From NCBI GenBank assembly GCA_016929805.1, contig JAFGIB010000456.1:7573-71572 (forward strand): DNA of 64,000 nucleotides, read 5' to 3'. Of this stretch, positions 4,345 to 26,408 are shown in pieces; the stretch's first letter is position 1, and the number at the start of each line of letters is the position of its first letter. Origin of the DNA: Deltaproteobacteria bacterium. Lineage in GTDB: Bacteria > Myxococcota_A > Polyangia > Polyangiales > JAFGIB01. The notes beneath the pieces are model-generated. The model had not been told where the DNA came from, searched no databases, and saw nothing but the letters and a program-made list of their open reading frames with translations. A program made the translations under genes and the position numbers.

Positions 4345-4878
4345 ACCGACAGCTCGAAATACATTCTCAATAGAAGCGTAACAAACTTTAGAGTGTTAGT
4401 GTCTGGATAAGTTAAATAGGGCTCAAATTCACCCGCCCGAACGGCGAAGACGTAGGAGCGAAGGTGATAGCTCTGCACTTGCGCAAACGACGTATTCCCT
4501 AGTAGGCACGCATCGCATATCGCATGCCGTTTCCGGAGCGCGAACGAAGATTCGCGCTCAGCCGATTTCCAGCGCGAACCGCCCTCGATTGGCGGATACC
4601 ACCGCGAAGTTGTTGGGTTTTTAACCCGAACGACGCTAGAGATCGCGACGAGGAATAAACGCGACATGCCCCTCTATTGCTTTTAATTCGCGGGCCGGCC
4701 GAGATAGTTATAATAAGATGCTGTATCTTTGCTAAATTTCATAAAAAAACGGAAAAACGCTCTACAGGCTCACAAGCGCCCGCGCTCATCGCGCTTGCTC
4801 GAAGAACCGGGGCGGCCATTTTATGTCGTTGCCCGCGTTGTCGTAAGCGTGGTTTTTGTGGCAAACTAAATCTCAGCC

Positions 4879-5445
4879 ATGTTGTCATTGCTATTGCTCG
4901 CTTGCTTGCTTACTTTTGCGGGTTGCGGCGTGGAGTCGCGCATCGAATTCCGAATCTGCGGAAAGCTTAAGGTTCCAAATCAGCTCGACGCGCTTCGCGT
5001 TTCGATTCTGGATACCGAGCTGACGGAACAGGGTTTCGCGCTCATCGAATTGACCGAACGCGATATGGTCGCGGAGGGCGGAGTTGAAGACAGCGCGACT
5101 AAAAACGACGACGCGCTAAGAAAGACGGATGAGCCAAGCCGGGAAGCCACCGAGGACGGCGGCCTAGACTCGGAGCGGCGATCGAGTACAATCAAGTCGC
5201 TACCCGTGACCGCTTCTTTAGAAGGGATAGAGGGTCCGGGCTATCTTAGAGTTCAGGCGCTGCTCGAAGGAGTAGAAGTGGCCCGGTTTGACCGTTGGAT
5301 TGCAGATCGGGATGCGGCTTCGACGGTCGATATGCCGTTAACAGAGAGTTGTTACGGAAGATATAACTGCGCGCTCGGCCAAACATGTGTCAAGGGTAAT
5401 TGCGTGGTTGCGCCGATCGGGAACGATCCACCCGCTTGCGATTAG
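4879..5445 (+). CDS. small lipoprotein with a Cys-rich C-terminus, function unknown
   Basis: 188-aa ORF. N-terminus is MLSLLLLACLLTFAGCG (lipobox). It has an acidic middle and a C-terminal CYGRYNCALGQTCVKGNCV motif. It sits directly upstream of paralog 3. Confidence 0.6.
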   Translation: MLSLLLLACLLTFAGCGVESRIEFRICGKLKVPNQLDALRVSILDTELTEQGFALIELTERDMVAEGGVEDSATKNDDALRKTDEPSREATEDGGLDSERRSSTIKSLPVTASLEGIEGPGYLRVQALLEGVEVARFDRWIADRDAASTVDMPLTESCYGRYNCALGQTCVKGNCVVAPIGNDPPACD

Positions 5446-5455
5446 AGGTTTTTTT

Positions 5456-7414
5456 ATGGCGTGCAGAAACGCTCGCGCTGATTTTATTCGTGATATGAGC
5501 TTGGTTTGCGCGCCGCTCATTTTCGTCGCATTCGCCTGTACCGACGCGCGACTATACAGCGACGAGGGGCCCGCGATGCAAGCCGACCGCTTGACCCTAC
5601 GCGGAAGGGTGTGTGCGCAGGATACGATGGCGGAGCGATTACCACTGCGCATCGTGATCGTGGCGGACCAGGCCGCCGGGCCGCTATTTTCGAGCTTTGA
5701 TCCGGGCGGTCTTCGAATTCAGTATCTGCGCGACTTCGTTCAATCCGCCGTGGCTTCCGAGCAGACCGAGTTGGCGGTTATCGGCTACGCCAATCGATCG
5801 AGAACCCTGGCTCCCCAAGAGGGCAACTTTACCCGCAATCCCGGGGAGCTTTTAAGCGCGATCAACCAACTGGCGATCTCGGAGCCGTGCTTGACGAACG
5901 GCATTTGTCGCGATTACCTGGAAGGACTGCGTACGGCTCGCTCCCTTATCGAAGGTGACATGGCGCAAACCGAAGCGGGCGTGCGCGTGCTCACGGAGTA
6001 CGCGGTCGTCTTTTTGCTCGCCGGTCCGCAGGTTCCGCTGGCGTCGAACGTCGATTGTTGCGAGGTCGGAGATGCCGCTTGTCTACGGCAAGATCCGCAG
6101 CCGAGTAACGAATGTCAGTCGCAGCGACAGCAACGAGAGATCAAAGCGCTGCGCGAAGCGGTAGAGACGGGCGGAGGTCTCGGCGTACGCGTACATGTGT
6201 TGCACCTGGCGGCCGAGGAGGAGGCGGTCAACGAGCAGCTACAGAGCGAGATGCGGGACCTGGCCTTTGAAGGACTGGGCTCGTACACGCGTATCGGCAG
6301 TTCAGAAGCGCTATCGGTGAGCGGAACCCATGTGCTGGAGCAACGAACCGATCTAAAAGTCAAGGCTTTAATCGTATCGAACATCAACGCGAAGCCGAGC
6401 CCCGCGGGTCCGCTCGTCGATTCAGACGCCGATGGTCTCGCGGATGATCAAGAAAGCATTCTCGAAACAGATCCGCAGAACGCCGATACCGACGGAGACG
6501 GAATCGGGGATTTGGTCGAAACGCTGACCGGCATACAGCCTTTACAGCCCGATCAGCCGGCCGCCTGTCGCCAATTGAAAAAAGCCGGACAAGACAGCGA
6601 TCTTGACGGTCTATCGGACTGCGATGAGGCGCTGCTTGGAACGGAGCCGACGCTGGTTGATTCCGACGGAGACGGTATGCCGGATAAACTCGAGGTAGTC
6701 GGCGCGACCGATTTTTTGCATTCGGACGCGCAGGCCGATAACGACGACGACGGCGTCACCAATAGCGACGAATTAAGCCAGCATTCGGATCCCAGGTCCG
6801 ATGACAACACCGCGAGACGCACCTACCGATACCGATATGAAATTGAGGACGAGGGAGTGCTCGAGGAACTATACGCACTGCCGATGGGGCAGTTGACGGG
6901 TGTTGAGATAGTGCGAATGAGCGCGGGGACAACACCGGGAGTAGGGATATTGCGCTATTCAAACCAAAAGAAGACCTTGAGTTGGCAAGACGGTATCGAC
7001 ACGTCGCCGGGTCGGGCGATAGACGTCTCCGCCGAGGGGATGGTTGAGCTGCCGTCCTCGTCGTACGCGCCCGTACAGGGGGAGGAAGGTAAGCGAATCG
7101 AAGTCGATATCCGCTTCGAGGATCTTCCGGGAGTGGACGTGAACGAGCGCGTTCGTATTATTTATAGAAAGAGACATTGCATCTCCTACACTGTAAGAAA
7201 CGTTCGATTAATGAACACACGAAATACCGGGGAGTCAGACGACGGCCTCAACCGAATAGTTCTCTATTTCGCAGAAGCTCCCGAAGGACGAACGCAACGA
7301 CCCGGCCCCTTCAGAATGGCGGAGATACCCGTTGTTTTTACGCCGCCTGAAAGACGCGATCCGTCCGCGCCGGCGATAGTGGTTTTCGATGAGGAATTTG
7401 TCAGACCGAAATAG
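5456..7414 (+). CDS. VWA-like / thrombospondin-type-3-repeat lipoprotein, paralog 3 (degenerate MIDAS)
   Basis: ORF 5387..7414. I prefer the ATG at 5456, which follows agagg and gives MACRN...LIFVAFAC (lipobox). The VWA-like region is IVIVADQAAG, with no Ser in the MIDAS position. TSP3 repeats include DSDADGLADDQE, DTDGDGIGDLVE, DSDGDGMPDKLE and DNDDDGVTNSDE. The C-terminal domain is shared with paralogs 1 and 2 (YRY...NRIVLYFAE). Confidence 0.8.
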   Translation: MACRNARADFIRDMSLVCAPLIFVAFACTDARLYSDEGPAMQADRLTLRGRVCAQDTMAERLPLRIVIVADQAAGPLFSSFDPGGLRIQYLRDFVQSAVASEQTELAVIGYANRSRTLAPQEGNFTRNPGELLSAINQLAISEPCLTNGICRDYLEGLRTARSLIEGDMAQTEAGVRVLTEYAVVFLLAGPQVPLASNVDCCEVGDAACLRQDPQPSNECQSQRQQREIKALREAVETGGGLGVRVHVLHLAAEEEAVNEQLQSEMRDLAFEGLGSYTRIGSSEALSVSGTHVLEQRTDLKVKALIVSNINAKPSPAGPLVDSDADGLADDQESILETDPQNADTDGDGIGDLVETLTGIQPLQPDQPAACRQLKKAGQDSDLDGLSDCDEALLGTEPTLVDSDGDGMPDKLEVVGATDFLHSDAQADNDDDGVTNSDELSQHSDPRSDDNTARRTYRYRYEIEDEGVLEELYALPMGQLTGVEIVRMSAGTTPGVGILRYSNQKKTLSWQDGIDTSPGRAIDVSAEGMVELPSSSYAPVQGEEGKRIEVDIRFEDLPGVDVNERVRIIYRKRHCISYTVRNVRLMNTRNTGESDDGLNRIVLYFAEAPEGRTQRPGPFRMAEIPVVFTPPERRDPSAPAIVVFDEEFVRPK

Positions 7415-7486: not shown

Positions 7487-8305
7487 ATGAGTATAGAGAA
7501 GCGATACGGGCGCATTTGGTTAGAGCGGTCATCTGTCTGTTCGCGTATTTCTAGCGGGAGTCAAGAGCTCGGCGACCGACGGAGTCGCTATCATAGGCTC
7601 TTGAGAGTGTCCCTCGCGCTTACGTTGTTTCCTCTCTTTTTATCAGTACTACTACCGACAATAGCGGCGGCGCAGTCTTCCACGGTCGAACAGTCGGGCT
7701 CCCAGAAGAGTCGAGCGCCACGCAAGGGAAAACCGGTTCGCGCTCAAACGAATGCCAAAACACGCAAGGGCGGCGGGCAAACCGTTCGCGGAAACCGTAC
7801 AACGGCGGGCGCCGGCGCCGAGAGCGGGCGAATCGACGCCGACTCCGCTAGCGTTATGGGTAGAGAGGAAGACAATAGCCAAACGGCTGCCGCGAAGGGC
7901 GAAAGCGACAGCGTGGAGGCGAGTATCGCAAGCAAGCGCGGCGAGCGAACGCCGTCATCGGAAAGCGACGGGATCAGGTTAGATCAAAAAGAGAAATTGG
8001 GCGAAAAGGAAGAATCTATCGATCGAGTTGGATCGGGGGCGTCCGCTCTACGATCGAATCGCATGGAGTTCGACGCACGCTTGGTATATGGCGAGACCGC
8101 GGGCAGCGGCGCGGTGATTCTATTTGATCGAGGGCAGAGGGACCTTCCGCCTTTGACCAGACGACGAAAGAGGTTTTTGTCGGCCACCACCGAATCGGTA
8201 TTTGGCTCGAAAGACGAGTTGCGTTATCGCATTCGAGACGAATTCAAGGAAGTCGAGCCCGATAACAGTAATGATAAGTCAGCGAGCGATGGACTCGGCA
8301 ACTAG
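7487..8305 (+). CDS. secreted low-complexity (Ser/Arg/Gly/Glu-rich) protein, unknown function
   Basis: 272-aa ORF with a hydrophobic signal-like segment LALTLFPLFLSVLLPTIAAAQS. Its stop overlaps the probable start of the downstream GltG/J-like gene. Confidence 0.5.
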   Translation: MSIEKRYGRIWLERSSVCSRISSGSQELGDRRSRYHRLLRVSLALTLFPLFLSVLLPTIAAAQSSTVEQSGSQKSRAPRKGKPVRAQTNAKTRKGGGQTVRGNRTTAGAGAESGRIDADSASVMGREEDNSQTAAAKGESDSVEASIASKRGERTPSSESDGIRLDQKEKLGEKEESIDRVGSGASALRSNRMEFDARLVYGETAGSGAVILFDRGQRDLPPLTRRRKRFLSATTESVFGSKDELRYRIRDEFKEVEPDNSNDKSASDGLGN

Positions 8306-10865
8306 GCATTTGTTACACGCGCTTTACGCCAACCCGCGCGATCCGGACGCGCTCGCGGAGGTACGACGTTACTTCGTCAAACAAGGACAGTTGCCGGCGC
8401 TGGCCAAGGTGCTCGAATGGTGGTCCTCTAAAGCATCGAGCGCGCAAGAAGCCGCACAGGCGCTATTCGACGCCGCGCAGCTTTTACAAAGCGCTAATGG
8501 AGACGCTTCGCAAATTATCTCCGTGCTGGAAAAGGCGCTTGAATATGACCCTTGCTTTGATTCGGCCTCGATCAAATTGGAAGCGCTATACCGCGCTCGA
8601 GGAGAAGAAGAAAAGGCGGCTCAACTACACAAAAGAAGAAACGATCGTATCTCCTTGATCGAGGCGTTAGACGGCATCTTATCCCAGGAAAACAGACCGT
8701 CGAGCCGTCGCCCTCCGGCGTCCGCTCGTCGGAACCGGGAAGCGGCGTTCGATACGCGGTCATCAGCCAACGCCGACCCGGGCAACTCGGGTAGCCGTTC
8801 AGGTGCGAGCGAGCCGGCCGGCGTGGTTTCTTACTCGTACCGTAAGACAAAAGATCTCGCCACAGCGGAGCTGGATGCTCGGCGCGAACGGGATCTGCAG
8901 ATTCCGTCGGCTCCTCGCGTGCCCGATTTTGCGATCGCTTCTGCGGGTCCTCGCTCTCGCGAGCTTGACCGCGACGACGATGTGGAGATCGACAACGCGG
9001 GTTTTGACGAGCGGCCGACCTCGAGTAAGAGAGCCTTGCGGGGCGGCTTGGCGTATGCCGCGGAGGTCGGTACAGCTTTGGGGAACGAAGTAGCGGCGCA
9101 GAACGTGGCGCATTCACGGCAGGCACCTCCGATTTCAGCTCTCGTTTCGCACGATCTCGTACAACCATTCGACGCCGACGATTCACAGCCGACGTATGAA
9201 GACGGAGATGACGAAGAGGAGGACCGGTTTTATCGCTCTTATTCAGGACGTGCCCCGGACACGGGCGAAGCCGCGGGATTCGAGTACGATTTTGACGGAC
9301 GTGTCACCGAAGAAACCCGCGGGTTGATCAGGCAACCGGAAGCGGGCTTTCCGGATGATCACAGCGCGCGTTGGGACGAAAGTTCCAGCTTCGAGCCTTA
9401 TCAAGAACAAGAAACCGCCGAAACCAACCGGCAAGCGGCGATCGCCTATCGAATCATCGCGGGCGATCCGTTGAACAATCCGGCGGAAATCGATTCTGAG
9501 CAGCCGGCGGTCGAGATCGACGTGCTATGGGGCGACGCGAATGTTATACATGTCGCGCACCTGTCGCCTCCGCGAGCCTATTGGGTGGGAGACGCGACGA
9601 CTCGGCGAGGCCGACGGGAAACCGATTTCTTGATCGGTCGAGAGACGCTCGGCACCGATAAACTTCCAATACTCGTCGAGTCCGACAGCGGTCTTGCCGT
9701 GGTGATTCCGACGGGCGCGGTCGGCGAACTCATCATCGAGGAAAAGGCATACAGCTTTGAGGATCTGCACGATAACGGCTTGCTTCAGCCTTGCCGTGAG
9801 TTGATCGGCGCCCGGCAACTTCGACTTGTAAAAGACAGCACGGTTTGGGTCTCTCATCGCGGCTTCACGTTTATCGTCAGAATGGGGGTGGGAGCCAAAA
9901 CCGTCGGAAAGAATCGAGGTCATCTGGTACGTTTCACGGAACACGGCTGGAATCTCGCGGTCGCCGGTGTCGCCTGTTTAATGCTTCTATGCTTTGCATT
10001 TCTCCCCCCGGAAACAGAGCTACTCTCACTCAACGCGATGAATTCCGACAGCCGGCTCGCGACTCATCTCATTGAACCTCCGGCGATCGAGGAGGAAGAG
10101 ATTCCCGAATGGCTTCAAGAGCAAAAAAAGGACGCGAAAAAGGCCAAGGAGAGCGAACAGGATAAGGCCAAACGCAAGCCCGACGAGCGTACGAAAAACG
10201 GCGGCCGCCGGCAGAGCTACGCGAGCCCGAGCAACGGCGAGCGCGCTTCGCGTTTGCTTTCGACGCTCGCCTCCTCGGGATCGGGCGGCGGACAAACCTT
10301 GCAAAAAGTGGTGGCGAAATTGGGTTCAGTTGGCGCGGGCGGTTCGTCGACCGCAGCGTTTTCGCTTTCGAGCGCGCTGGCCGGTCTGAATGGAGTCGGT
10401 GGAGTCAATCTTGGCGGAATCGGAACGGGAACCGGCATCGGCATAGGCATGGGGAGCGCGGGAGGAGAGGCGGCCGCCGCCGGGGTCGGTAAATTGAGCG
10501 GTCGGGGCGGCGGAGGTCGCGGCCGGGTCCGGGGTAAAGTTCGGGCGCTCAGTCTTGGATCGCGCGTCACCGGCAGCCTGACGCCGGGACAGGTTTTGGA
10601 GGTCATCAATCGATCGATGGCTAAGATTCAACAATGCTATGAACGTGGTTTAACGCGAAATCCCGCGTTGGCCGGACAGGTCAAGTTTGAGTGGACGGTT
10701 ACGCCTTCCGGAGATGTATCCTCGTTACGGCAAGCTGGCAGTACCCTCGGTGATATAGAGGTGACGAAATGCATAGCGGGAACTATTAATCGAATGCGTT
10801 TTCCCAAGCCCAAGGGCGGTTCGGTATCGATCACTTTTCCTTTCATCTTTAGACGAGCACAGTAG
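8289..10865 (+). CDS. AgmX/PglI-type (GltG/GltJ-like) bitopic protein with a TonB-C-like tail
   Basis: ORF 8202..10865. The in-frame ATG at 8289 (MDSATRHLLHALY) overlaps the upstream stop. The N-terminus is TPR-like and is followed by a long acidic/low-complexity linker. One TM segment (WNLAVAGVACLMLLCFAFLPP) is followed by a Lys-rich and then a Gly-rich segment. The C-terminus (VINRSMAKIQQCYERGL...QVKFEWTVTPSGDV...CIAGTINRMRFPKPKGGSVSITFPFIF) is typical of AgmX/PglI C-terminal domains. Confidence 0.75.
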   Translation: MDSATRHLLHALYANPRDPDALAEVRRYFVKQGQLPALAKVLEWWSSKASSAQEAAQALFDAAQLLQSANGDASQIISVLEKALEYDPCFDSASIKLEALYRARGEEEKAAQLHKRRNDRISLIEALDGILSQENRPSSRRPPASARRNREAAFDTRSSANADPGNSGSRSGASEPAGVVSYSYRKTKDLATAELDARRERDLQIPSAPRVPDFAIASAGPRSRELDRDDDVEIDNAGFDERPTSSKRALRGGLAYAAEVGTALGNEVAAQNVAHSRQAPPISALVSHDLVQPFDADDSQPTYEDGDDEEEDRFYRSYSGRAPDTGEAAGFEYDFDGRVTEETRGLIRQPEAGFPDDHSARWDESSSFEPYQEQETAETNRQAAIAYRIIAGDPLNNPAEIDSEQPAVEIDVLWGDANVIHVAHLSPPRAYWVGDATTRRGRRETDFLIGRETLGTDKLPILVESDSGLAVVIPTGAVGELIIEEKAYSFEDLHDNGLLQPCRELIGARQLRLVKDSTVWVSHRGFTFIVRMGVGAKTVGKNRGHLVRFTEHGWNLAVAGVACLMLLCFAFLPPETELLSLNAMNSDSRLATHLIEPPAIEEEEIPEWLQEQKKDAKKAKESEQDKAKRKPDERTKNGGRRQSYASPSNGERASRLLSTLASSGSGGGQTLQKVVAKLGSVGAGGSSTAAFSLSSALAGLNGVGGVNLGGIGTGTGIGIGMGSAGGEAAAAGVGKLSGRGGGGRGRVRGKVRALSLGSRVTGSLTPGQVLEVINRSMAKIQQCYERGLTRNPALAGQVKFEWTVTPSGDVSSLRQAGSTLGDIEVTKCIAGTINRMRFPKPKGGSVSITFPFIFRRAQ

Positions 10866-10887
10866 CGAATAACATTGTCGGCGCCGG

Positions 10888-11958
10888 TTATACCTCGATA
10901 TCAAGAGCGAGAAGCGCGCCACAGTAGAGTTTCCCCCAGGTAGCTTGGTCGTGTTCGGCAAAGCGGACGACCAGCGGTTCTACGACGCGGCCCGTACTTA
11001 ATTCGAGCCTGACGCCTAGGTTTTCGCTTGCAAGGTAGACAAGGGCAAGCCGGGTAAATAGCGCGAAACTACTCGCGAACGCGTTTTTGCTTTCATAAGG
11101 TTCCAACGCCTTTCCTTCCATGTAGGCCGCGATCCACGCGACCGCGATTCCGATCTCCGACCGCCAGCGGCTATCGTAATCTGTCAAAAGAGCGTAGGCG
11201 CCGAAAGCGATATTACCGATGTAGAGCTCAGCCGAACCATTGTCGCCGGACTCGGTTATGCCGCCCGCTGAAGTCTGCACGCGTGCGGCGATTCCCCAGG
11301 GATATTCGACAAGCCAATTAACTCCTCCCGCTATTTGAATCGCGGGCGCAACACCTCCAATACTATAGCCGGGTCCCGAACCGATAACCAGAGATAGACG
11401 GCTACTCGCTGTATTCGCCGCTCGCATAGTATCTGTATCGTCCGTCATAACCCGCTGTTGGACTTCGATCTCGTGGTTCACCGCCATAGCACGAACCTCC
11501 GTGGAGGGTTTGACCTCGCTTTCCCGGGGCGGGCGAGATGACATCGCGATTTCGCGGAAGCTCGCTCGTAGAAGTTCGATCACCCGCATCGCCAAAACGC
11601 GCGAGCTACTATCCCTAGCGCTTGCCTCGCGCTGAATACTGCGTTGAACCGTTTTACCCGTGACCAAGTCGACGACCCATATTTCGATGGCCTGCCGATC
11701 GACGCCCGTAATCCAGACGGCGGCCGCGACCTTCAGGCGCCGCGCCAAATCTCTCAACTCGCGCCAAGATTTAATCGGCGCGTCGGACAATACGACCTCG
11801 AATTTGAGCGTACCTAGTTCGGCGTCGAGTTGACGCGTCAGCGCGTGCTCAGGCGCGAGTCCTACCAGTGCGATACGGTTGCCGGAATTCGCTCTCGCTT
11901 CAGAGCACATACAGAGTAGAACCGATAGAATCACGAGTATTTGGCAGACGCGGCTCAA
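10888..11958 (-). CDS. secreted protein with a beta-rich, possibly outer-membrane C-terminal half, co-transcribed with the ECF sigma gene
   Basis: 356-aa ORF with signal peptide ILVILSVLLCMCSEARA. The C-terminal half shows alternating Gly/aromatic beta-strand-like segments. It starts 21 bp downstream of the sigma-factor stop on the same strand. Confidence 0.6.
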   Translation of the reverse strand: MSRVCQILVILSVLLCMCSEARANSGNRIALVGLAPEHALTRQLDAELGTLKFEVVLSDAPIKSWRELRDLARRLKVAAAVWITGVDRQAIEIWVVDLVTGKTVQRSIQREASARDSSSRVLAMRVIELLRASFREIAMSSRPPRESEVKPSTEVRAMAVNHEIEVQQRVMTDDTDTMRAANTASSRLSLVIGSGPGYSIGGVAPAIQIAGGVNWLVEYPWGIAARVQTSAGGITESGDNGSAELYIGNIAFGAYALLTDYDSRWRSEIGIAVAWIAAYMEGKALEPYESKNAFASSFALFTRLALVYLASENLGVRLELSTGRVVEPLVVRFAEHDQATWGKLYCGALLALDIEV

Positions 11959-11979
11959 GCAGGTCTCCTAGAACCGAGC

Positions 11980-12630
11980 CTACGACACCGATTCAAGGCG
12001 CCGAAGGTCGCTCTGCGAGAGGCATTCGTTCAGGTACGGGTCTCTCTTTGCATAGCTTATAAATCGCTGCCGACCCTTTTGCAGGCGGCGCTTTATCGTG
12101 GCTAAAGAAACATCACAGGCGTCCGCGACTTCGACCAAATCCATCTCATCCATATACCTCAAGGTAAACGGGATTCGTTCCTTAACCGGCATTTTCTTTA
12201 TAACGGCATAGACTCGCTTGAGCGTTTCAACCTCCTCAGCAGAGGCGAGTACCGCGGGCACGTCGGGGATTTCCTCGGGCGGTTTGTGCTGTAACCATTT
12301 GCGCAGCCTGCGCTTGCGAATCCAGCCTCGCGCCGTAAATACGGCGATTCGGGTTAACCACGGCTTCAGCTCTGGATAGCCGCCGCGGAACCCACGGGCG
12401 CCTGCTATCGCGCGTAAAAACACCTCTTGCATCAGTTCTAGAATCTCCGCATCCCAACCCAAAACGCGATAGAGCACACGTTCGATATCAGGTGCATAGC
12501 GCCTGTATAATTCAGCCTTTGCGCTCCGGTCTCCTGCGCGAAATGATTCCACAAACGCCGTATCATCAGCGTAGAAAGTCGCCGTTGTTAGGATCTTCGC
12601 GCGTTTTACATATTCAGGAGTCTTGGCCAT
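11980..12630 (-). CDS. ECF-type RNA polymerase sigma-70 factor
   Basis: ORF 11980..12702; the probable start is MAKTPEY at 12630. The region-2-like stretch is ELYRRYAPDIERVLYRVLG...MQEVFLRA. The region-4 HTH is FTLRYMDEMDLVEVADACDVSLATIKRRL. Confidence 0.85.
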   Translation of the reverse strand: MAKTPEYVKRAKILTTATFYADDTAFVESFRAGDRSAKAELYRRYAPDIERVLYRVLGWDAEILELMQEVFLRAIAGARGFRGGYPELKPWLTRIAVFTARGWIRKRRLRKWLQHKPPEEIPDVPAVLASAEEVETLKRVYAVIKKMPVKERIPFTLRYMDEMDLVEVADACDVSLATIKRRLQKGRQRFISYAKRDPYLNECLSQSDLRRLESVS

Positions 12631-12906
12631 CAGCAGGTTGTGATCAGCAAGGAACCCTACGACTGAAAAAAACGTCATACCGAAACGCGGCGGCGCGAAC
12701 ACGCGAGCGAGCGGCGATTTTCCGTAGCGTTTGGTTGGTCATTGATAAAAACTATTGTCTATTCGAGAACTTCGAATTCCTATTCTATCAGTTTGTCGCC
12801 GGGCTAAAAATAGGAGATCGATACGTAGATTCTCAAAAAGTGGGGGCAAAACAACCTGGGAACGCGGCGATAACGGTTCGCCCTTGGGTAGTATTGAAAT
12901 AGAAAA

Positions 12907-12937
12907 GTGCCCTTGCCCCTGCCCTTGCCCCTGCCCA
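12907..12937. repeat. C-tract/G-tract microsatellite (gccc[c/t]t hexamer x ~5); G-quadruplex-type motif on the minus strand
   Basis: The sequence is gtgcccttgcccctgcccttgcccctgccca. This gives five runs of 3-4 C separated by 3-nt spacers, in the divergent ECF-sigma/FecR intergenic region. Confidence 0.8.
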
Positions 12938-13065
12938 AGTAACTCAAAAGCAAGAAACGTAGTGATTCTAGCACGATTGCGCCACGTAAGGGAAGTTATC
13001 CCGGTTGTAAAAAACGGGCATGGGCACGTTGAGCGCCTCTCAGTAATCTGCATCTGTTCGCCACT

Positions 13066-13136
13066 ACTTTTTAAGAACTTATGCATTAAGCCGTTTTTCT
13101 CGCGTTTTCGCTCGACGTTTTTTTCAAGGTTAAGGT
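13066..13136 (+). repeat. family-1 foldback repeat, right-arm fragment
   Basis: ...ccgtttttctcgcgttttcgctcgacgtttttttcaaggttaaggt aligns to the right arm of the full copies. Confidence 0.7.
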
Positions 13137-13190
13137 TTTATTTGAGCTTTTTCCTTGAGCCGCCGACACTAGCATAGTAGCCACTGGTGG

Positions 13191-14522
13191 ATGACGCGGT
13201 TTTGCGGAACCGCGTGGCATATCCCAAGTGGGAAAATCGGAGGCGTTACTGTGGGTTTTCTCGATGAAAAGCCGATCGAGCGTTTAGCTATCCGAGTAAA
13301 AAGGGTACAAGATAAGCTTCTGGCGGAAAACGCTCCCGAGCGGTTCGAAAAAGGATATCGCGCTTTTATTTCGGCGATCGATCAGGAAACCCCGCAGAGA
13401 CGCTGGCCCGCGGCGATTCGTTGGGCCGTCAGCCTAAGCGTTGCGGCGACCGCGGTCTTTGCTCTTTGGTGGATAAGAACGGATCGCGCGACGACTTTGT
13501 CTTTCACGGTAGGTCATGAGCATACCCCGGGTACTGTTGGAGGTTGGATAACCGCCCCGCCCGATAAAAGCGTGCCGGTGGATTTCTCGGACGGTACGCG
13601 ATTGGCCCTCGAGCCCAACACGCGCGCTCGCATCGGGTTATATCAGTTAACAGCGGCGCGAATCGTTTTGGAGGCTGGTAGCGCGAGGGTTTCGGTGGTC
13701 CATCGTGAACGCGTTCAATGGAGAGTTGACGCTGGACCCTTTTCGGTTCGCGTGACAGGGACGCGTTTCAAGGTATCTTGGAATCCGGAACTGCAACTTT
13801 TTGAAGTGACTTTACGCGAGGGCGCGATAATTGCCGAGGGTCCGGTATTGAATCAGGGCCAGACAGTCGGTCGAGGGCAAACGCTTAGGGTATCGTTACC
13901 TAGGGCGATGGCTCTATTAGCGAGCACCAATGCGCTTCCGTCGTATCGCGACTGGGTCGCGAGCATGCGGTCCGATGCGAACAAAGACCGAGATAATGAA
14001 AGCAAATTTACGAGTGAAGCTCAAACCGAATCGAGGCGAAAAAGAGCGAATGGTAGCGACGTTCGATGGATGGAATTAGCGGAACAAGGTCACTATGAGG
14101 CGGCGCTAGGCGCGGCTGAAGAAAGAGGATTCCATCGGCTCTGTCGTAGCCTCGGCGTGGCGTCTTTGGTCCGTCTGGCGGAAGTGGCGAGGTTTGCGGG
14201 GCGCGTCGACCGAACCGAGGAAGCGCTGCTCGTACTTCGCAAACGTTTTCCGAAACATCGGGAATCGGCTATAGCGGCTTACACCCTGGGTCTCGCCGCG
14301 TTTGATCAAAAACGGGATTATCACGAAGCTGAGAAATGGTTTGAAGTTTACTTGCGTCAACAGCCTTCCGGACCGCTCGCGCGAGAGGCTCTCGGGCGTC
14401 TTATGGAAGCGCAATATCGACTCGGCCGGAAGCCAAATGCCAAACACACGGCGCGTCGATACCTCGATCAATATAGCGACGGCCCTCACGCTGATATCGC
14501 CGCGCGTCTGATTGACGAATAA
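13191..14522 (+). CDS. FecR-domain anti-sigma-like protein with one TM segment and a C-terminal TPR-like domain
   Basis: 443-aa ORF, divergent from the ECF sigma gene. The TM segment is AAIRWAVSLSVAATAVFALWWI. The FecR-like beta region is DFSDGTRLALEPNTRARI...FSVRVTGTRFKVSW. The C-terminus is helical-repeat (LGLAAFDQKRDYHEAEKWFEVYL). Confidence 0.8.
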   Translation: MTRFCGTAWHIPSGKIGGVTVGFLDEKPIERLAIRVKRVQDKLLAENAPERFEKGYRAFISAIDQETPQRRWPAAIRWAVSLSVAATAVFALWWIRTDRATTLSFTVGHEHTPGTVGGWITAPPDKSVPVDFSDGTRLALEPNTRARIGLYQLTAARIVLEAGSARVSVVHRERVQWRVDAGPFSVRVTGTRFKVSWNPELQLFEVTLREGAIIAEGPVLNQGQTVGRGQTLRVSLPRAMALLASTNALPSYRDWVASMRSDANKDRDNESKFTSEAQTESRRKRANGSDVRWMELAEQGHYEAALGAAEERGFHRLCRSLGVASLVRLAEVARFAGRVDRTEEALLVLRKRFPKHRESAIAAYTLGLAAFDQKRDYHEAEKWFEVYLRQQPSGPLAREALGRLMEAQYRLGRKPNAKHTARRYLDQYSDGPHADIAARLIDE

Positions 14523-14539
14523 CTACGAGTGGGCAGATT

Positions 14540-15379
14540 ATGCGTATTCGTAAAGGCTTTTTAGCCGCTTTTGCATGGACTTTACTGATCGTATCAGTAG
14601 GGAATGGCTGCGAGCCGGTAGGCGAGCCGATCGCGAGTCCGGATTTATTTAACTCCGGTAGAATCTTGGAGCCGGACGCGGGATATATACGCCTCGATTG
14701 CGAGCAGAGCGCCGAATTACCGGAGACGCTCGCGATATATTGTTTTGAGGACAACGACCAACCGAACGACATCGTCGTCGACAGCACGGGTCAACACGAT
14801 GGAAAGATCATCGGGACGAAAACGCGCGTCGTCCGCGGCCCGACCTGTTGCGGTATGGCTCGGTTTTTCAGCGAATCGAACAGCGCGTCCTATATTGAAA
14901 TCCCGGATTCGCACGATTGGGACTTAGACAAAGGGTCGATCAGTTTCTGGGTACGAATTAATGCCTGTTTTATCGCCGGTCAGAGCCAAGGGTTGATCTC
15001 GCGAGCATCGGCTGATCGCGACGAAGACGGACATTTGGGGCTGCTGCTGCTTAGCGAATGCAATTGGGCGGCCTTTGCAGCCGTAGACGGAGAAGCGATA
15101 GAGGTCCGAGCTGACAGATCCCTCACGCCGGGCAAATGGTCTCATATCAATATCAACTTCGGACCTCCTGGTCTTGAGCTGTACTTGGACGGCAGACTGG
15201 TAGCGGAAGATACCTTTCGCTCGGGAATGGAAGGCAGCCGCAATCCATGGGTAATCGGAGCTGACACGCGAGAAGCGAAACCGGGGACCGCTTCTCCGCC
15301 CGTACATTTTCTCACGGGGGCCGCGATCGACCTACTGCGAATAAGCTCAGCGCGGAACAAGTTGGTTTTTCTGGAGTAA
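14540..15379 (+). CDS. LamG/concanavalin-A-like lectin-fold lipoprotein
   Basis: 279-aa ORF with lipobox VSVGNGC. LamG-type motifs are YIEIPDSHDWDLDKGSISFWVR and KWSHININFGPPGLELYLDGRLV. Confidence 0.7.
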   Translation: MRIRKGFLAAFAWTLLIVSVGNGCEPVGEPIASPDLFNSGRILEPDAGYIRLDCEQSAELPETLAIYCFEDNDQPNDIVVDSTGQHDGKIIGTKTRVVRGPTCCGMARFFSESNSASYIEIPDSHDWDLDKGSISFWVRINACFIAGQSQGLISRASADRDEDGHLGLLLLSECNWAAFAAVDGEAIEVRADRSLTPGKWSHININFGPPGLELYLDGRLVAEDTFRSGMEGSRNPWVIGADTREAKPGTASPPVHFLTGAAIDLLRISSARNKLVFLE

Positions 15380-15503
15380 TGAGCCGCTTGCGAAAGTTGA
15401 GCCATTTTAGTCTCTCGTCGACACGTAACCTATAAAAGCGCAAACGAACGCATAATCAGAACCTAATCAGAACCGATAGGAGCACGGTTCGTTGGAGGAG
15501 AAA

Positions 15504-16877
15504 ATGCAAACTCTTTTATACAGGATCGTACGCTATACCGCCTTAGCGGCGCTCTTTATCATTCCCTCGCAATCGGATGGTCAGTCATTCGAGTGCGACG
15601 ACCGATTCGGCGAATGCGGCACGCCGGAAATGAGCGGCGGCGGCGGGAACGGAGGCGGGGGCGCTATCCTCATCGCCAACACGGATCTCGGCGATACCTA
15701 CCAGTTTGCCGATGATTTCGACAACGACGGCCGCGAGGATCCCTACGATAATTGCCCGCAAGTACGCAACGCGGACCAGCTCGATTCCGATGGCGACGAA
15801 ATCGGGGACGCGTGCGACAACTGCCCCGATACCGCCAATCAGATGCAAGAGGACATCGACGGTGACGGTGATGGAGACGCCTGCGACGACGACATGGACG
15901 GCGATGGTGTCGCGAACGAAGCGGACAACTGCCCTGAAGCGCCCAATCCCGCTCCGGACGAGTCCGCGGAGCAAAGCGATACCGACGAAGATGGTATGGG
16001 CGACGCCTGCGACGAGGATATCGATGGCGACGGGCAAGACAACATCGATGACCCCTGTCCAATGATTGCCGGTCAAGCAGATGACCTCGATAACGACGCG
16101 TGCAGCCCCGACGCGGACGGCGACAACGTACCGGATATAAAGGACAAATGCCCTTATATTTACGATCCGGACCAAAGCGATGTCGACGGCGATGCCCGCG
16201 GAGACGCGTGCGACTCCGATATTGACGGGGATAATATCATCAACAGCATCGATAATTGTCCCGAGGTAGAGAATAGCGATCAGGCGAATGAAGACAGAGA
16301 TGAATATGGCGATGCCTGCGACGACGACGGCTATTGCTACGTCGTTTTCGGCGACTATAACAACTGTCTTGATCCGGAAGATTTCCTAACGGTCTACGTA
16401 CCGACGCTGCTAGTCAATGTAGACAAACTGATTCGACTTCCGTTTTTCGTTAATCGTAATAACCAACGGCTAACCTACGAATGGTCGGTCGTCGAAGCCC
16501 CTAACGGTTCGAGCGCAACAGTGGTCGCGGCTCGTGGGACGGTCGATTCGTCGATTCGATACGAATATCTTTATCCGAAAGACGAGGTCGCGAGCTTCAA
16601 ACCAGATCGCGTTGGTGAATATGAACTTCGAATCACGGTTACCGCTCCCGTCGACGCTTTGACTCAGGAGATGAATGTGTCGGATACATTTGTAGGCAAA
16701 CTCGTGGTTCAAGGTGAGCCTTCTGAAGGCAAACGCGTGGTCCAAGGCGATGAGCCTACCAGCGACACCGACGCCGGTTCCTGCAGCGTAACAAACGGAA
16801 TGCGACCGAGCGCGACGAATTGGTTGTTGGCGCTGGTAATCGGAGTCCTACTTTCATTGCGGCGGCGTTCATTCTGA
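15504..16877 (+). CDS. thrombospondin-type-3-repeat protein with a MYXO-CTERM-like sorting tail
   Basis: ORF 15492..16877. The ATG at 15504 follows ggaggag. Canonical TSP3 units are present ([50 protein letters not shown]...). The C-terminus is DAGSCSV...[18 protein letters not shown]: Cys, then a hydrophobic helix, then an Arg cluster. Confidence 0.8.
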
Positions 16878-17957: not shown

Positions 17958-18602
17958 ATGAGAAGGTTATTTATTTTATCGACTATATCGGCTGTTGCCT
18001 TCGGCTTCGTCCCGGCGAGCTCGGTGAGCGCCGATGAAGGTGACGAAGCCTCACACGGGTACGCCGCGATGGCGGTGCAAAACCGCCTGTACACGCAGAC
18101 CGGTGAGCTGACGGCGTTCGTGGGTGTTTTACCGATGGATGCCTTTACCAAAGGGCTAACGCTCAGCGCGGCGTATACGCACCATTTTTCAGATCATTGG
18201 GCGTGGGAAGTCGTTCATTTCTTTTACTCCTTTCACATCGAGACCGATTTGCGCGACGATCTAGAAGCTTTCGATCTCGGTCCAATTCCATTTGAGGTTA
18301 TCGAACATCAAATGGTTACGAGCAACGCGGTTTTCAAGCCCGTGTATTGGAAGGGTTCGGTTTACAACGATTCGTTGATCTACGGAGAGCTGATGGTCTT
18401 GGCGGGCGCGGGATACGCGTGGTTCACGCGCTCAGAACGTATGGCCGTGGATCTCGGTATCGCAATGCGCGTTTATGTAAGCGGTTTGCTGTCCTTTCGC
18501 GTCGACGTACGGCACCATATATTCTTTGACGATGAGATCTTCAAACAGGCGAACTTAGACCATGAACTTTGGATTGGCCTCGGCACGTCGATTTCGTTTT
18601 AA
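17958..18602 (+). CDS. outer-membrane beta-barrel protein of the GltA/GltB/NfsA/NfsB type
   Basis: 214-aa ORF with signal peptide FILSTISAVAFGFVPASSVSA. VQNRLYTQTGELTAFVGVLPMDAFTKGLTLSAAYTHHF and the terminal ...GLGTSISF (C-terminal Phe) match my memory of the myxobacterial OMP family that contains GltA/B. Confidence 0.65.
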   Translation: MRRLFILSTISAVAFGFVPASSVSADEGDEASHGYAAMAVQNRLYTQTGELTAFVGVLPMDAFTKGLTLSAAYTHHFSDHWAWEVVHFFYSFHIETDLRDDLEAFDLGPIPFEVIEHQMVTSNAVFKPVYWKGSVYNDSLIYGELMVLAGAGYAWFTRSERMAVDLGIAMRVYVSGLLSFRVDVRHHIFFDDEIFKQANLDHELWIGLGTSISF

Positions 18603-20025
18603 CCGACGCGCGTGGATTTTGTCCGCGTGCCTCGCTTCTATCGTCGTTTGCAACGGCTGCGGCGGGGCCTCCACGCAAAACGGTAAGGAATTATCCTTCA
18701 GTCGTGCGGTCGAGGCATCCTTAGACGAATCCTGGGAGTCCGCGGCCGAAGCTGCTTTTAATTATATAAAAAAATCCTCGCCCGATGAGCTGCGATACGA
18801 TAGGGCGCTCTTAATGCTCGCGCAGGCGGCGGAACGTTTGGGTTTTTCCTATGCGGCTTCGCTTTGGTACCTTGACATCGCGCAAGCGCGGAGAAACATC
18901 GAACTACTCGACAAGTCGATAGCGGGCCTCGAACGCATTATCATGAAAGGTCCCCACGACGAAACGACGCTCGTACGGGGGGTTCTCGCCACCGCTGATA
19001 TTACTGATCTATCGGCGGACAAGCTGGCTTTCATCAATTATCTCCAGGGGCTATACAACGTTCGGGACGGATTGGACGCATGGGCGGACCGTCAGTTCGG
19101 CGGGATCGCGCCGGCGAGGTCGTATTCTCATAGGGCGCACTATATCCAGGCGGTTCGGGATCTCGAACGCAAACAATGGTCTCAAGCACGACGAAGGTTA
19201 ACACGGCTGTTAAAGCATGCCAAATTGCAGGAAGAGATTCGCAATCAGGCGGAGTTGGCGCTGGCGCGTTTATCGATGGAAGAAGCGCGCTATCCGCAAG
19301 CTATCAAACACTATAAACGCGTAAAGCGGCTTGCGCCGAGTCATCCGGAGCTGTTGCTAGAGATGGCCTGGGCATATTACTATAGCGGAGCGGCCAAGCG
19401 CGCGCTCGGTCTATTAATCGCGCTTGACGCTCCGATTTACATGGAGTTGATCGCGCCGGAACGGTTCTTGTTAGAGGCGTTCTGTCTGCGGCAGTTATGC
19501 CAATTCGAGCCGGCTAGAATCGCGGCTGTACGCCTGCGAGAACGTTACGGCGAGGCATTATCCGATCTATCCTCGGGATTGTCGCCCATCGAATCGGCCT
19601 CCCTTCGAATCGGAGCTCGCCAGCGCGGCGGAGCGCGTCGATTGTGGCTCTTGTTGGAAAGAGTTCGCGTGGAAAAAGCGTCGGTCGACGGCCTTGCAAT
19701 AGGAGAGTCATTATCCAAAGAGCTTAAAAGAGTCTACGAAGTCGGCGACCAAGAAATACAGCAGCGCCTAGAACAGGCGTTGGAAATCGAAAGCGAAATT
19801 TTGGCCGACGAGCTCATCGCGGCAGAAAGAGGCGTACAGTTAATATTGCACGAGCTAAGCGTCGGTTTGCTGCGAGGCCGCTCGAGACCTCCCGGTATCG
19901 AGTCGACAATCGAACCCAACAGGGAATCGGAAGAATCGGACGTTTCCTATTCTTTCGTCGGTGAGTTTTGGACGGACGAATTAGATAGCCTGGTCGTTAA
20001 TATTCCGGATCGATGTCTAAAATAG
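18562..20025 (+). CDS. TPR-like lipoprotein, GltC/NfsC-like
   Basis: 487-aa ORF with lipobox VVCNGCGG and helical-repeat content. It overlaps the barrel gene stop by 41 nt and the next gene start by 13 nt, which suggests translational coupling. Confidence 0.6.
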   Translation: MNFGLASARRFRFNRRAWILSACLASIVVCNGCGGASTQNGKELSFSRAVEASLDESWESAAEAAFNYIKKSSPDELRYDRALLMLAQAAERLGFSYAASLWYLDIAQARRNIELLDKSIAGLERIIMKGPHDETTLVRGVLATADITDLSADKLAFINYLQGLYNVRDGLDAWADRQFGGIAPARSYSHRAHYIQAVRDLERKQWSQARRRLTRLLKHAKLQEEIRNQAELALARLSMEEARYPQAIKHYKRVKRLAPSHPELLLEMAWAYYYSGAAKRALGLLIALDAPIYMELIAPERFLLEAFCLRQLCQFEPARIAAVRLRERYGEALSDLSSGLSPIESASLRIGARQRGGARRLWLLLERVRVEKASVDGLAIGESLSKELKRVYEVGDQEIQQRLEQALEIESEILADELIAAERGVQLILHELSVGLLRGRSRPPGIESTIEPNRESEESDVSYSFVGEFWTDELDSLVVNIPDRCLK

Positions 20026-23369: not shown

Positions 23370-24095
23370 ATGCGCCGTTTTTCGCGCATCTGGATGAAAA
23401 GAACGAGTTTGCTTGTACTAGCGACTTTTATCGCTTTCGGTTTTGCCTGCGGTTCCCAACAGGTCGAACCGCTCGATCCCAACGACTCGACTCTTCCGCA
23501 AGATACGAGGAGATGGATTGCGGCGGCCGAGGACGGTGTCGTCGCGGCCCGCGCGCGACGCGATGCGGCAAAAGAGCGACTAGAACGGGCCCGCGCGAGA
23601 CAGAAGCGTATGTTGGACGAAATCGACTTCGGCTCTAAAGGCGCTAAAGTCGTCGATTCCATGAACGCTCGCTTCGAGCGACACCAAGACTATTTGGAAG
23701 CGCAACTCGATCGCGCCGAGGCGCTTCTCGCACTGGCGGAAGCTAAGTACGAACTCGCGACCGCGGAGCAGGCTATTATACACGATATCGCGCGTTACGA
23801 TGTAGAAGAGATCAAACAGAAAGTCGAGCATGCGCGCCGACAGCTACAAGATGTCCGGAACCGTTTGCGTCAAACTCGGGAATCCCTCGACCGAACCACG
23901 ACGCGCTTTTGGCAGGTGTACGCCCAATATTTAAAGGAAGGAGGCGACGCGTTGCGTTTCTGGACCGGTAAAGGGCCGTCGATGTCAATCGCACGGTCCG
24001 CACCCAAAACCGGCACGGATGCTAAACCTCAAGAGCAATCGGTCAATCCCCGTTCCAATGTCAATCCAAAGGATTTGCCCTCGAACCCCTTTTAG
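23370..24095 (+). CDS. coiled-coil lipoprotein, last gene of the Glt-like operon
   Basis: 241-aa ORF with lipobox FIAFGFACGS and heptad-like charged helices (ARRDAAKERLERARARQKRMLDE...). It starts 3 nt after the previous stop. Confidence 0.55.
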   Translation: MRRFSRIWMKRTSLLVLATFIAFGFACGSQQVEPLDPNDSTLPQDTRRWIAAAEDGVVAARARRDAAKERLERARARQKRMLDEIDFGSKGAKVVDSMNARFERHQDYLEAQLDRAEALLALAEAKYELATAEQAIIHDIARYDVEEIKQKVEHARRQLQDVRNRLRQTRESLDRTTTRFWQVYAQYLKEGGDALRFWTGKGPSMSIARSAPKTGTDAKPQEQSVNPRSNVNPKDLPSNPF

Positions 24096-25829: not shown

Positions 25830-25907
25830 GCGGATGCGTAGCTCGAGCTTTAAAACCGTATTTACGACGTCGGCATACGCGTCAAGATAGAGAAGACGGG
25901 GAGGGTT

Positions 25908-26399
25908 ATGAAGGCCTTAACCATGGAAACATCGAATATAAACACACAAAAGCTTTCGGATGTGCTGAGCGACTTTATAGCCGAGACCGATTCAATCGTC
26001 GCTCTTCTGTTGAATAAGGACGGTACCGCCATCGCCTCCGCGGGCAGCGAAAACGCGATCGATACGACGGCGATGGCCGCCTTGATAGCCGGAATGTTTT
26101 CCGCGACGCGAGAGGTGGCGAAGATGGTTGGAGAGCATCAGTTTTCCATCCTTCTTCAGCAGGGAGAAAAAAGGCACATCCATATTTCGCTCGTTAATGA
26201 GCACGTTATGATGGCGGTGGTATTTGAGGGATTTCATCGAATCGGACGTATCAGATATGAGTCGAGAAAAGCATGTAAAACGATCGGGGCGGCTCTGGCG
26301 ATTACCGACCAGACGAATAACAACCAAAAAGTTATCTCAATTCCCGAGTTCAAGGAGGTCGCTCTGAACCTTATAGATAGTATATTTACCAACAAATAG
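25908..26399 (+). CDS. mglB: MglB-type Roadblock/LC7 protein (GAP partner of MglA)
   Basis: 163-aa ORF with RBS ggggagg. ALLLNKDGTAIASAGSENAIDTTAMAALIAGMFSATREVAKMVGE...HIHISLVNEHVMMAVVF...GRIRYESRKA parallels M. xanthus MglB. It lies immediately upstream of mglA, as in Myxococcus. Confidence 0.85.
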   Translation: MKALTMETSNINTQKLSDVLSDFIAETDSIVALLLNKDGTAIASAGSENAIDTTAMAALIAGMFSATREVAKMVGEHQFSILLQQGEKRHIHISLVNEHVMMAVVFEGFHRIGRIRYESRKACKTIGAALAITDQTNNNQKVISIPEFKEVALNLIDSIFTNK

Positions 26400-26408
26400 G
26401 GCCGAGAG

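Follow-up and report, generated by a model that had tools for sequence, protein, structure and literature searches.

A putative mosaic of GltG and an N-terminal TPR tail-protein family in a Glt-like locus of an uncultured Polyangiales-related bacterium

Background

GltG (PglI, MXAN_4867), an inner-membrane protein of the Agl-Glt focal-adhesion machine of Myxococcus xanthus, consists of an N-terminal FHA domain (aa 1-114, a predicted GltI binder), an FHA-like sandwich, a single membrane helix, a flexible periplasmic arm and an AgmX/PglI tail that resembles the TonB C-terminal domain (CTD). The FHA-like sandwich, or "central FHA", was assigned to residues 190-329 at a Foldseek E-value of 1.1e-2 in a 2025 modelling paper, in which an AlphaFold model seats it, together with the membrane helix, on the AglR5QS motor (PMC11761067); AglR and GltG were also found to interact in two-hybrid assays (PMC3169522). 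Directly upstream of gltG lies gltF, the gene of a small secreted protein predicted to insert a beta-strand into the GltG tail (PMC11761067). Here we describe a protein that resembles GltG in part, a putative force transducer (below, the transducer). It is encoded in a 64,000-nt stretch of a metagenomic contig of a Deltaproteobacteria bacterium (JAFGIB010000456.1, positions 7,573 to 71,572), and this whole stretch is called the window. The transducer appears to combine the middle of a GltG protein with the two ends of another family of tail proteins.

Several Glt-like systems are relevant for comparison. The G5 cluster is among the paralogous clusters of M. xanthus with a function described as unknown (Luciano et al. 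2011). It encodes the GltD-like MXAN_1327 (1089 aa), the GltC-like MXAN_1328, the GltB-like MXAN_1329 (246 aa), the GltG-like MXAN_1330 (749 aa, annotated as FHA-domain-containing) and the GltF-like MXAN_1331 (162 aa), and has no motor in cis (Luciano et al. 2011). G5 adjoins the gene of MtsC (MXAN_1334; PMC12475490), and the mts locus and MtsC have been linked to cell-cell cohesion and S-motility, as cited in PMC11980579. The Nfs cluster is a further Glt paralogue (PMC3169522).

Mosaic structure of the transducer

The transducer is best described, from its similarity pattern, as a mosaic: its middle (aa ~373-637) is of the GltG type, and both ends are related to a family of AgmX/PglI-tail proteins with an N-terminal TPR module, hereafter the N-TPR family (P0011, P0012, P0013, P0025, P0034 and others, from Polyangia metagenome-assembled genomes, MAGs). 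What sets it apart is this combination, found in a locus without the motor genes of the N-TPR family. Segment-wise BLAST was performed with P0011 as the reference for the N-TPR family and P0005 as the reference for canonical GltG. For the N-terminus (aa 1-130), identity to P0011 is 48%, and P0005 gives no match. The beta-sandwich (aa 401-552) and the membrane helix with its juxtamembrane segment (aa 553-612) are 54% and 59% identical to P0005, respectively, with no match to P0011 for the former and no meaningful one (33% over 15 aa, 16 bits) for the latter. Further on, the Lys/Glu-rich and Gly-rich arm (aa 613-760) is 46% identical to P0011 and 24% to P0005, and the tail (aa 761-858) 72% and 34%. 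BLASTP with the full-length protein gives the same picture: residues 373-637 align with residues 179-444 of P0005 (47% identity, 244 bits), and from aa ~650 the similarity reverts to the N-TPR family (58% identity to P0011 over aa 650-858). The boundaries of the mosaic, as judged from these full-length high-scoring segment pairs, lie at about aa 373 and 637-650.

The members of the N-TPR family share with the transducer the TPR module (34-48% identity) and the arm and tail (49-72%), but they carry an unrelated pre-membrane domain and helix, here termed the type-B cassette. Local hidden Markov models (HMMs) built for both cassettes separate the two groups. The 13 N-TPR tail representatives all have the type-B cassette, the HMM of which does not match the transducer, and the combination of a GltG-type cassette with an N-TPR head was found only in P0001-P0004, the clade of the transducer.

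The pattern of conservation is informative about the origin of this combination. Among P0001-P0004, conservation is highest in the tail (78-82%) and lower in the cassette (55-61%). Compared with canonical GltG, the cassette is far more similar than the tail, which is the reverse of what vertical descent would predict. It could nevertheless be proposed that no recombination took place, that the GltG-type cassette is ancestral to G5 transducers, and that the type-B cassette with its cis motor arose later in other Polyangia, by replacement or by fast divergence. Consistent with this, G5 of M. xanthus has the FHA-annotated MXAN_1330 and lacks a cis motor, and the GC content of the cassette and its GC content at third codon positions (GC3) are unremarkable. 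However, simple descent does not account for the reversed gradient (cassette 54% and tail 34% against GltG), and the type-B and GltG-type cassettes have no detectable similarity although their flanks are 46-72% identical. Even if the cassette were ancestral, the gene would still be a mosaic, with only the labels of donor and recipient interchanged. We therefore consider this alternative unlikely. The unremarkable GC3 indicates that the exchange either is not recent or occurred within the lineage, and a recent horizontal transfer of the cassette was rejected on this ground.

The transducer might also be an ordinary GltG orthologue of the Agl-Glt machine, in which the N-terminal FHA domain was exchanged for TPR. 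Of the NCBIfam models, GltG (NF033760) is indeed the best full-length match, with aa 369-857 placed on profile positions 161-648 out of 650; the cassette and canonical GltG are 54-59% identical, and an MglB/MglA-like pair is present 15 kb downstream. On the other hand, the score of 175.5 bits falls far short of the equivalog cutoff of 650 bits, and the tail is much closer to the N-TPR family (72%) than to canonical GltG (34%). The gene surroundings are also different. They are syntenic with the N-TPR loci L005, L006 and L007 and include MtsC/MtsD-type genes, rather than following the gltD-E-F-G-H-I-J order of a G1-type locus (as in L002), and the window was found to encode nothing similar to GltE, GltH, GltI or GltJ. 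Given the wrong context and the wrong tail, this explanation was rejected; some small probability may be left to it. The preliminary description of this DNA had called the protein GltG/GltJ-like. GltG is the relevant comparator over aa 369-857, but GltJ (AgmX) matches only in the tail (NF033761, 50.4 bits). Although GltJ shares the single membrane helix as well, the transducer has no Zn-ribbon and no GYF domain, and its six Cys residues (89, 502, 563, 568, 783 and 828) form no CxxC pair, as had already been noted. The GltJ-like reading was rejected for the lack of ZnR and GYF domains.

P0001 is identical to the window protein, and P0002-P0004 are its orthologues, at 48-56% identity. Only these four proteins, all metagenomic, share the full architecture in a collection of 5.8 billion clusters. 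After these, the closest relatives are P0005 and P0006, two canonical GltG proteins whose N-terminus is matched by Pfam FHA, and P0005 is encoded in a gltC-D-E-F-G-…-giant-TPR cluster of textbook order. With the transducer as the query, genome contigs yielded a single distant relative (L001), and the family alignment retrieved from metagenome contigs only a 2.3-kb fragment (L008). Because every member comes from a metagenome assembly, the chimera might be suspected to be an artefact of binning or contig joining. However, the same collinear architecture is present on four independent contigs (the window/P0001, L003, L004 and the P0004 contig), which differ in sample or source and encode proteins of 48-56% identity, and the reading frame is unbroken across both junctions. 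An assembly artefact was rejected for the recurrence on four contigs and has, in our opinion, a negligible probability.

The gene itself extends from an ATG at 8289 to the stop codon at 10863-10865, encoding 858 aa. The open reading frame (ORF) as listed is longer (8202-10865) and has in-frame ATGs at 8271 and 8289. The second is the true start, since MD(S/P) opens the protein at the matching codon in each of the four full-length orthologues. The product has one membrane helix, at aa ~553-575 (nt 9945-10013; Kyte-Doolittle 2.3), and no other segment approaches that hydropathy. The helix is followed by a Lys/Glu-rich segment (aa 576-640; 23% acidic, 20% basic) and a Gly/Ser-rich spacer (aa 641-760; 28% Gly, 15% Ser), so that the single-helix topology, the two spacers and the acidic low-complexity stretch of about 250 aa proposed in the preliminary description (aa 131-400, net charge -20, weakly conserved among the orthologues) are all borne out by hydropathy and composition. 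A Pfam search with the whole transducer, and likewise with the cassette alone, gave no significant domain.

The C-terminal ~90 aa had been described as a TonB-C-like AgmX/PglI tail, and the HMM search agrees. NF033768 (AgmX/PglI C-terminal, myxo_SS_tail) matches aa 766-855 over profile positions 3-92 of 92, at 98.5 bits (cutoff 40; E 1.8e-28). The Pfam TonB_C model has no match to the transducer sequence alone at E<=0.1. A profile built from 12 family tails, searched against the PDB, has as its top matches 11 distinct TonB CTD sequences (E 2.8e-4 to 4e-3), which justifies the TonB-C-like label at the superfamily level. The transducer thus resembles TonB and TolA in its single helix, its long periplasmic spacer and the homology of its C-terminal domain to the TonB CTD, and its relatives share with them the partnership with an ExbB/TolQ-type channel. 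Unlike TonB and TolA, it has a cytoplasmic N-terminal region of 550 aa, and its spacer is rich in Gly, not Pro.

The pre-membrane FHA-like domain

AlphaFold2, given nine homologues, folds the pre-membrane region confidently as a beta-sandwich (aa ~408-532, pLDDT ~90), with the membrane helix after it. The best Foldseek matches in the PDB are FHA or SMAD/FHA-fold domains (DDL, Pml1p, kanadaptin, TIFA, MEK1 and the IRF association domain), and they are weak (E 6.5e-3, probability 0.95). The Pfam FHA model (PF00498) fails to match this domain even at E<=1; in the canonical GltG P0005 it matches the N-terminal FHA at E 4.6e-14. The suggestion that the beta-rich segment is FHA-like is thus supported by the fold and not by the Pfam model. 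The evidence is at the same weak level as that published for the central FHA of GltG. The sandwich and the helix of the transducer are homologous to the central FHA and helix of GltG, inherited and not novel, as the alignment shows. Since GltG itself carries the domain, it is not a new input module. The earlier idea of a different cytoplasmic input domain on the same envelope-spanning chassis therefore applies to the TPR module, which stands in place of the N-terminal FHA of GltG or the ZnR-GYF modules of GltJ, but not to the pre-membrane domain, which is that of GltG.

The N-terminal TPR module and the acidic linker

The N-terminal helices had been described as TPR-like. AlphaFold2 applied to aa 1-138, with the four orthologues aligned, gives seven helices (pLDDT 93, pTM 0.83), and all the top Foldseek matches of this model in the PDB are TPR proteins, including consensus TPRs, MamA and OGT (best E 1.9e-4). 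In the transducer, the module and a ~240-aa acidic linker replace the N-terminal FHA domain of GltG. A profile of the module, searched against 1.84 billion representatives, has 424 matches, which fall into three groups. First, it is the N-terminal part of other AgmX/PglI-tail proteins (P0011, P0012, P0013, P0025, P0034 and others), with E-values of 1e-22 to 1e-39 for P0011-P0013. Second, it matches the N-termini of cytoplasmic TPR proteins of 1000-1900 aa. Third, it matches giant proteins of 3400-4100 aa, each with 10-17 matching stretches. Among the giant ORFs at the GltI position of the canonical loci, that of L001 matches the profile at E 1e-14 and that of L002 no better than E 0.11. The profile matches no periplasmic TPR protein of the window. 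These matches place the module in a cytoplasmic TPR subfamily shared with the GltI-sized scaffolds; we expressly make no claim that it is strictly GltI-derived.

The N-terminal half had also been considered unusual. The TPR N-terminus is not unique and marks a wider family, with 13 further cluster representatives among the 150 best matches, all of them tail proteins. Their ~120-aa N-terminal signature, MDxxT…LAKVLEWW, is present in the transducer. The long TPR proteins without a tail (P0015, P0017, P0030 and others; 1000-1900 aa) begin with the same ~120-aa module, in the form MDxxT…LANLLEGWA. P0010 (1083 aa, from a Logan contig) combines a Ser/Thr kinase domain with a type-B cassette, a membrane helix and the AgmX/PglI tail, and so presents a further kind of N-terminal module on the scaffold of this family.

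Two short motifs in the linker are kept in all four proteins of the clade (P0001-P0004): PxxP[RK]VP[DE]F (aa 206-214, nt 8904-8930) and GF[DE][DE]xPTS (aa 238-245, nt 9000-9023). A regular-expression search of ~160 other collected proteins found neither motif outside the clade. Lying within a fast-evolving and disordered linker, they are candidate docking sites.

The upstream secreted partner

The gene directly upstream of the transducer gene (ORF 7487-8305, stop codon TAG 8303-8305) encodes a secreted low-complexity protein, termed the partner below. Near its C-terminus it has the motif MEFDARLVxGETAGSGAVxLFxRGxRxLxxLTxxRxxFL (nt ~8030-8212), which is near-invariant across six loci and 64% identical to that of the L005 partner. 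The overlap between the transducer start and the stop of this gene, which had been noticed before, is real: the transducer ATG lies 17 nt inside the partner ORF. The same 17-nt overlap is present in four other loci (L003, L004, the P0004 contig and L007), and the junction DNA GATGGA…TA(G/A) is kept in L003, L004 and L007. L005 and L006 have no overlap, with a short gap between the partner and the tail gene. Translational coupling is a reasonable inference from the conservation of the overlap, and the two proteins may assemble in a 1:1 ratio. The partner gene occupies the place of gltF next to gltG, and likewise that of MXAN_1331. An hhalign comparison of the partner motif with two canonical GltF proteins covers 45 columns in the expected register, and at E 0.13 it is weak, so that the partner is a candidate homologue of GltF only.

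Gene content of the locus and motor genes

The loci of the N-TPR/type-B proteins (L005, L006 and L007) have a common organization. On one strand there are genes for a ~160-190-aa protein, a ~650-aa TSP3 protein, a TolQ/ExbB-like protein, two ExbD-like proteins, the secreted low-complexity protein and the tail protein. Convergent to these are genes for a ~250-aa protein, a ~1100-aa GltD-like TPR protein, a GltC-like protein and an OMP_myx_plus barrel. To this set L005 adds MtsD-like VWA/TSP3 genes and one MtsC-like gene. Eleven conserved gene families are common to the window and these three loci (Table 1). By tblastn, all the syntenic genes have counterparts in the window at 35-64% identity except three, those of the motor.

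In all three of these loci, a MotA_ExbB gene and two ExbD genes lie between the TSP3 gene and the partner gene. The L005 motor proteins, searched by tblastn against the 64-kb window, found nothing at E<1e-3, and Pfam and NCBIfam, run on ~48 of the larger ORFs of the window, detected no MotA/ExbB or ExbD domain. In the orthologous locus L003, the TSP3 gene is directly followed by the partner gene, with no motor genes between them. Within the clade, the absence of motor genes is confirmed for the window and for L003 only, as the L004 and P0004 contigs end too early. The canonical GltG loci L001 and L002 have no adjacent motor genes either. In M. xanthus, aglRQS forms a cluster separate from the glt genes. 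In this small sample, therefore, a GltG-type cassette goes with no motor genes nearby and a type-B cassette with motor genes in cis. This suggests that the chimeric transducer follows its cassette in motor-gene arrangement (two loci without motor genes, three with them).

The gene content is also similar to that of G5. The window encodes a GltD-like TPR protein of ~1100 aa, a GltC-like protein, a barrel of ~246 aa, a GltG-like protein and a protein at the GltF-like position, near MtsC/MtsD-type TSP3 adhesins, and neither locus has motor genes in cis. One difference is that MXAN_1330 is annotated with FHA and the transducer has TPR, as compared by annotation, not sequence. By its gene content and the MtsC/MtsD-type genes, the window locus is best described as a Glt paralogue of the G5/mts type. 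The GltD-like scaffold itself is weakly similar to the GltD homologue of L002 (BLASTP, E 6e-13), and the TSP3 protein encoded at 5387..7414 is 57% identical to the product of a 647-aa L005 gene.

The neighbourhood bears on one more explanation, namely that the transducer is a signalling or regulatory protein, in which TPR and the FHA-like domain serve as phospho-dependent scaffolds, for example with an ECF (extracytoplasmic function) sigma/anti-sigma pair, and the tail is only an anchor. An ECF sigma factor and a FecR-like protein are encoded immediately downstream, the relative P0010 has a kinase domain, and deletion of gltG is known to change the expression of gltH in M. xanthus (PMC3169522). 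However, the sigma/FecR block is missing from the syntenic loci, where the conserved neighbours are structural Glt-like components, plus the TolQ/ExbD motor in the relatives, and the Pfam FHA model gives no match. We regard a signalling role as very improbable.

Table 1. Transducer segments and neighbouring genes in the window
Feature	Position	Strand	Description and basis
Transducer, whole gene	8289..10865	+	858-aa inner-membrane protein, one membrane helix, AgmX/PglI tail; probable mosaic GltG paralogue
N-terminal TPR module, cytoplasmic (aa 1-130)	8289..8678	+	three repeats and capping helix; AlphaFold2, Foldseek
Acidic disordered linker (aa 131-372)	8679..9404	+	~240 aa; composition, low conservation
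GltG-type cassette (aa 373-637)	9405..10199	+	beta-sandwich ~408-532, helix ~553-575, periplasmic juxtamembrane segment
Periplasmic Lys/Glu-rich, then Gly/Ser-rich spacer (aa 638-765)	10200..10583	+	composition
AgmX/PglI C-terminal domain, TonB-CTD-like (aa 766-855)	10584..10853	+	NF033768; conserved Cys 783, 828
Secreted low-complexity partner	7487..8305	+	signal peptide …LLPTIAAAQ; basic and acidic low-complexity stretches; true start uncertain
MtsD-like VWA/TSP3 protein, 770 aa	2032..4344	-	NCBIfam MtsD 149.6 bits, below cutoff; 50% to 737-aa L005 gene
Small conserved protein, 188 aa	4879..5445	+	precedes TSP3 gene in all related loci; tblastn 35-42% to L005, L006, L007
TSP3-repeat/VWA protein, MtsD/CglD-like	5387..7414	+	Pfam TSP3_bac, VWA_2; NCBIfam MtsD 126 bits, below cutoff
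Secreted ORF, 356 aa	10888-11958	-	no family match
ECF sigma factor	11980-12702	-	
FecR-domain/TPR protein	13191-14522		
LamG-domain protein	14540-15379		
MtsC orthologue	15492..16877	+	TSP3 repeats, MYXO-CTERM; NF047638 457.7 bits, above cutoff of 350; 49% to 446-aa L005 gene
Outer-membrane beta-barrel OMP_myx_plus	17958..18602	+	GltA/B-like position; TIGR04565 72.9 bits, above cutoff of 60; same gene order in L006
GltC-like TPR protein	18562..20025	+	NF033756 54.8 bits, below cutoff; L006 counterpart 52.9 bits
GltD-like periplasmic TPR scaffold, 1117 aa	20013..23366	+	51% to L005 TPR gene of 717+ aa
Conserved 241-aa protein	23370..24095	+	follows GltD-like gene; 35-41% to L005, L006, L007 counterparts
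Response regulator	25068-25829		
MglB-like protein	25908-26399		63.6 bits, below cutoff
MglA-like small GTPase	26409-26990		sequence MPFINYENREISFKIVYYGPG…
DUF4388/PATAN protein	27044-27748		
DnaA-like AAA+ protein	27756-28934		
ParA-like ATPase	29916-30731	-	

Proposed function

Taken together, these observations indicate that the transducer is probably the inner-membrane force transducer of a G5/mts-type Glt-like envelope complex, a mosaic protein served by a motor encoded elsewhere. None of the alternatives considered above fits the pattern of segment identities and the synteny jointly as well as this one. The protein would be the equivalent of TolA, TonB or GltG. Its FHA-like sandwich and membrane helix would dock on a proton channel of the TolQ/ExbB type, and the three-repeat TPR module, on its long acidic disordered tether, may recruit some cytoplasmic partner. 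In the periplasm, the Gly-rich arm and the TonB-CTD-like tail would extend as far as the GltD-like/GltC-like scaffold and the beta-barrel beneath the outer membrane, and the tail may in addition bind the secreted partner, the gene of which lies upstream and overlaps that of the transducer. The likely output would be the TSP3/VWA adhesins of the MtsC/MtsD-like type. As for its origin, the ancestral type may have been an N-TPR tail protein with its own cassette and TolQ-ExbD-ExbD in cis, in which the cassette (aa ~373-637) was replaced by that of GltG and the cis motor genes were lost. The transducer locus shares with the N-TPR/type-B family the partner motif, the synteny and, in L007, the 17-nt overlap.

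The GltG type of the cassette and the missing cis motor genes point to a motor of the AglRQS type acting in trans, and it is quite plausible, by analogy with Nfs in M. xanthus, that the complex is powered in this way. The Nfs sporulation complex reportedly has no motor of its own and is driven by AglRQS. It would thus be a precedent for a paralogous Glt-like complex sharing AglRQS, although Nfs is a close duplicate of the whole Glt cluster, whereas the transducer is GltG-like only in the motor-proximal cassette and otherwise a distant paralogue.

Several points weigh against this reading. No motor gene was identified in the 64 kb of the genome covered, and the cognate motor could simply have relocated. 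The absence of motor genes is documented for no more of the clade than the window and L003. For the role of the cassette in motor docking, the basis is the two-hybrid result and the AlphaFold model from M. xanthus rather than a solved structure. Synteny is the ground for the direction of the exchange, and as G5 of M. xanthus has no cis motor and an FHA-annotated GltG-like gene, the GltG-type cassette may be ancestral in part of the family. Finally, all the sequences are metagenomic and known from genes alone.

The clade may be viewed as a natural domain swap, in which a GltG-type cassette is placed on an otherwise foreign transducer, and thus as a natural experiment on motor-transducer specificity. 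The data suggest that motor specificity resides in aa ~373-637. On the coupling of AglRQS to the Glt, Nfs and uncharacterised G4/G5 complexes, the evidence to date comes solely from a two-hybrid result and from AlphaFold models. More tentatively, and with considerable doubt, one may speculate that the cassette swap moved the motor-specificity determinant of GltG into an adhesin complex of the Mts/G5 type, so that a single AglRQS-type motor drives both gliding and a TSP3/VWA cohesion apparatus, with the TPR module as a built-in piece of the cytoplasmic platform replacing the contact between FHA and GltI. In that case the locus would show which ~265 residues encode the choice of motor in Tol/Ton/Agl-type systems. 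Apart from the motor, the comparison connects G5, a cluster so far unexplained, with the mts genes for cell cohesion and with TSP3/VWA adhesins in several lineages of Myxococcota, and reveals a recurrent N-terminal TPR module common to tail proteins and GltI-sized scaffolds.

Other features of the window

Three paralogous VWA/TSP3 (MtsD/CglD-like) genes flank the locus, at ~11-1942 (-), 2032-4344 (-) and 5387-7414 (+), and a further VWA protein is encoded at 60700-62052 (-). The block between the transducer and MtsC genes (10888-15379) is absent from the syntenic L005, L006 and L007. A block containing the MglB/MglA-like pair (25068-27748, and on to 30731) begins 1 kb past the Glt-like genes, and the GC content of the 24-32 kb stretch is 0.465-0.484, compared with 0.55-0.58 at 20-24 kb just upstream. 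A housekeeping operon, rimP-nusA-(RNA-binding protein)-infB-…-truB, is located at 38224-45551. Its NusA matches that of a MAG listed at NCBI as "Deltaproteobacteria bacterium" at 100% identity, those of Polyangiales/Myxococcales MAGs at 80% and that of Sandaracinus at 70%, from which the window can be assigned to an uncultured Polyangiales-related lineage.

Additional tail proteins are encoded in two of the related loci. L004 has, at 4281-5930 (-) and convergent to the transducer orthologue, a second AgmX/PglI-tail protein of 549 aa (tail HMM E 3e-23), which matches the N-terminal TPR profile weakly and has no counterpart in the window. In L001, from a Myxococcales MAG, tail proteins are arranged in tandem, an FHA-GltG at 8073-10010 and a shorter paralogue at 10034-11740, followed by a giant ORF of >2889 aa.

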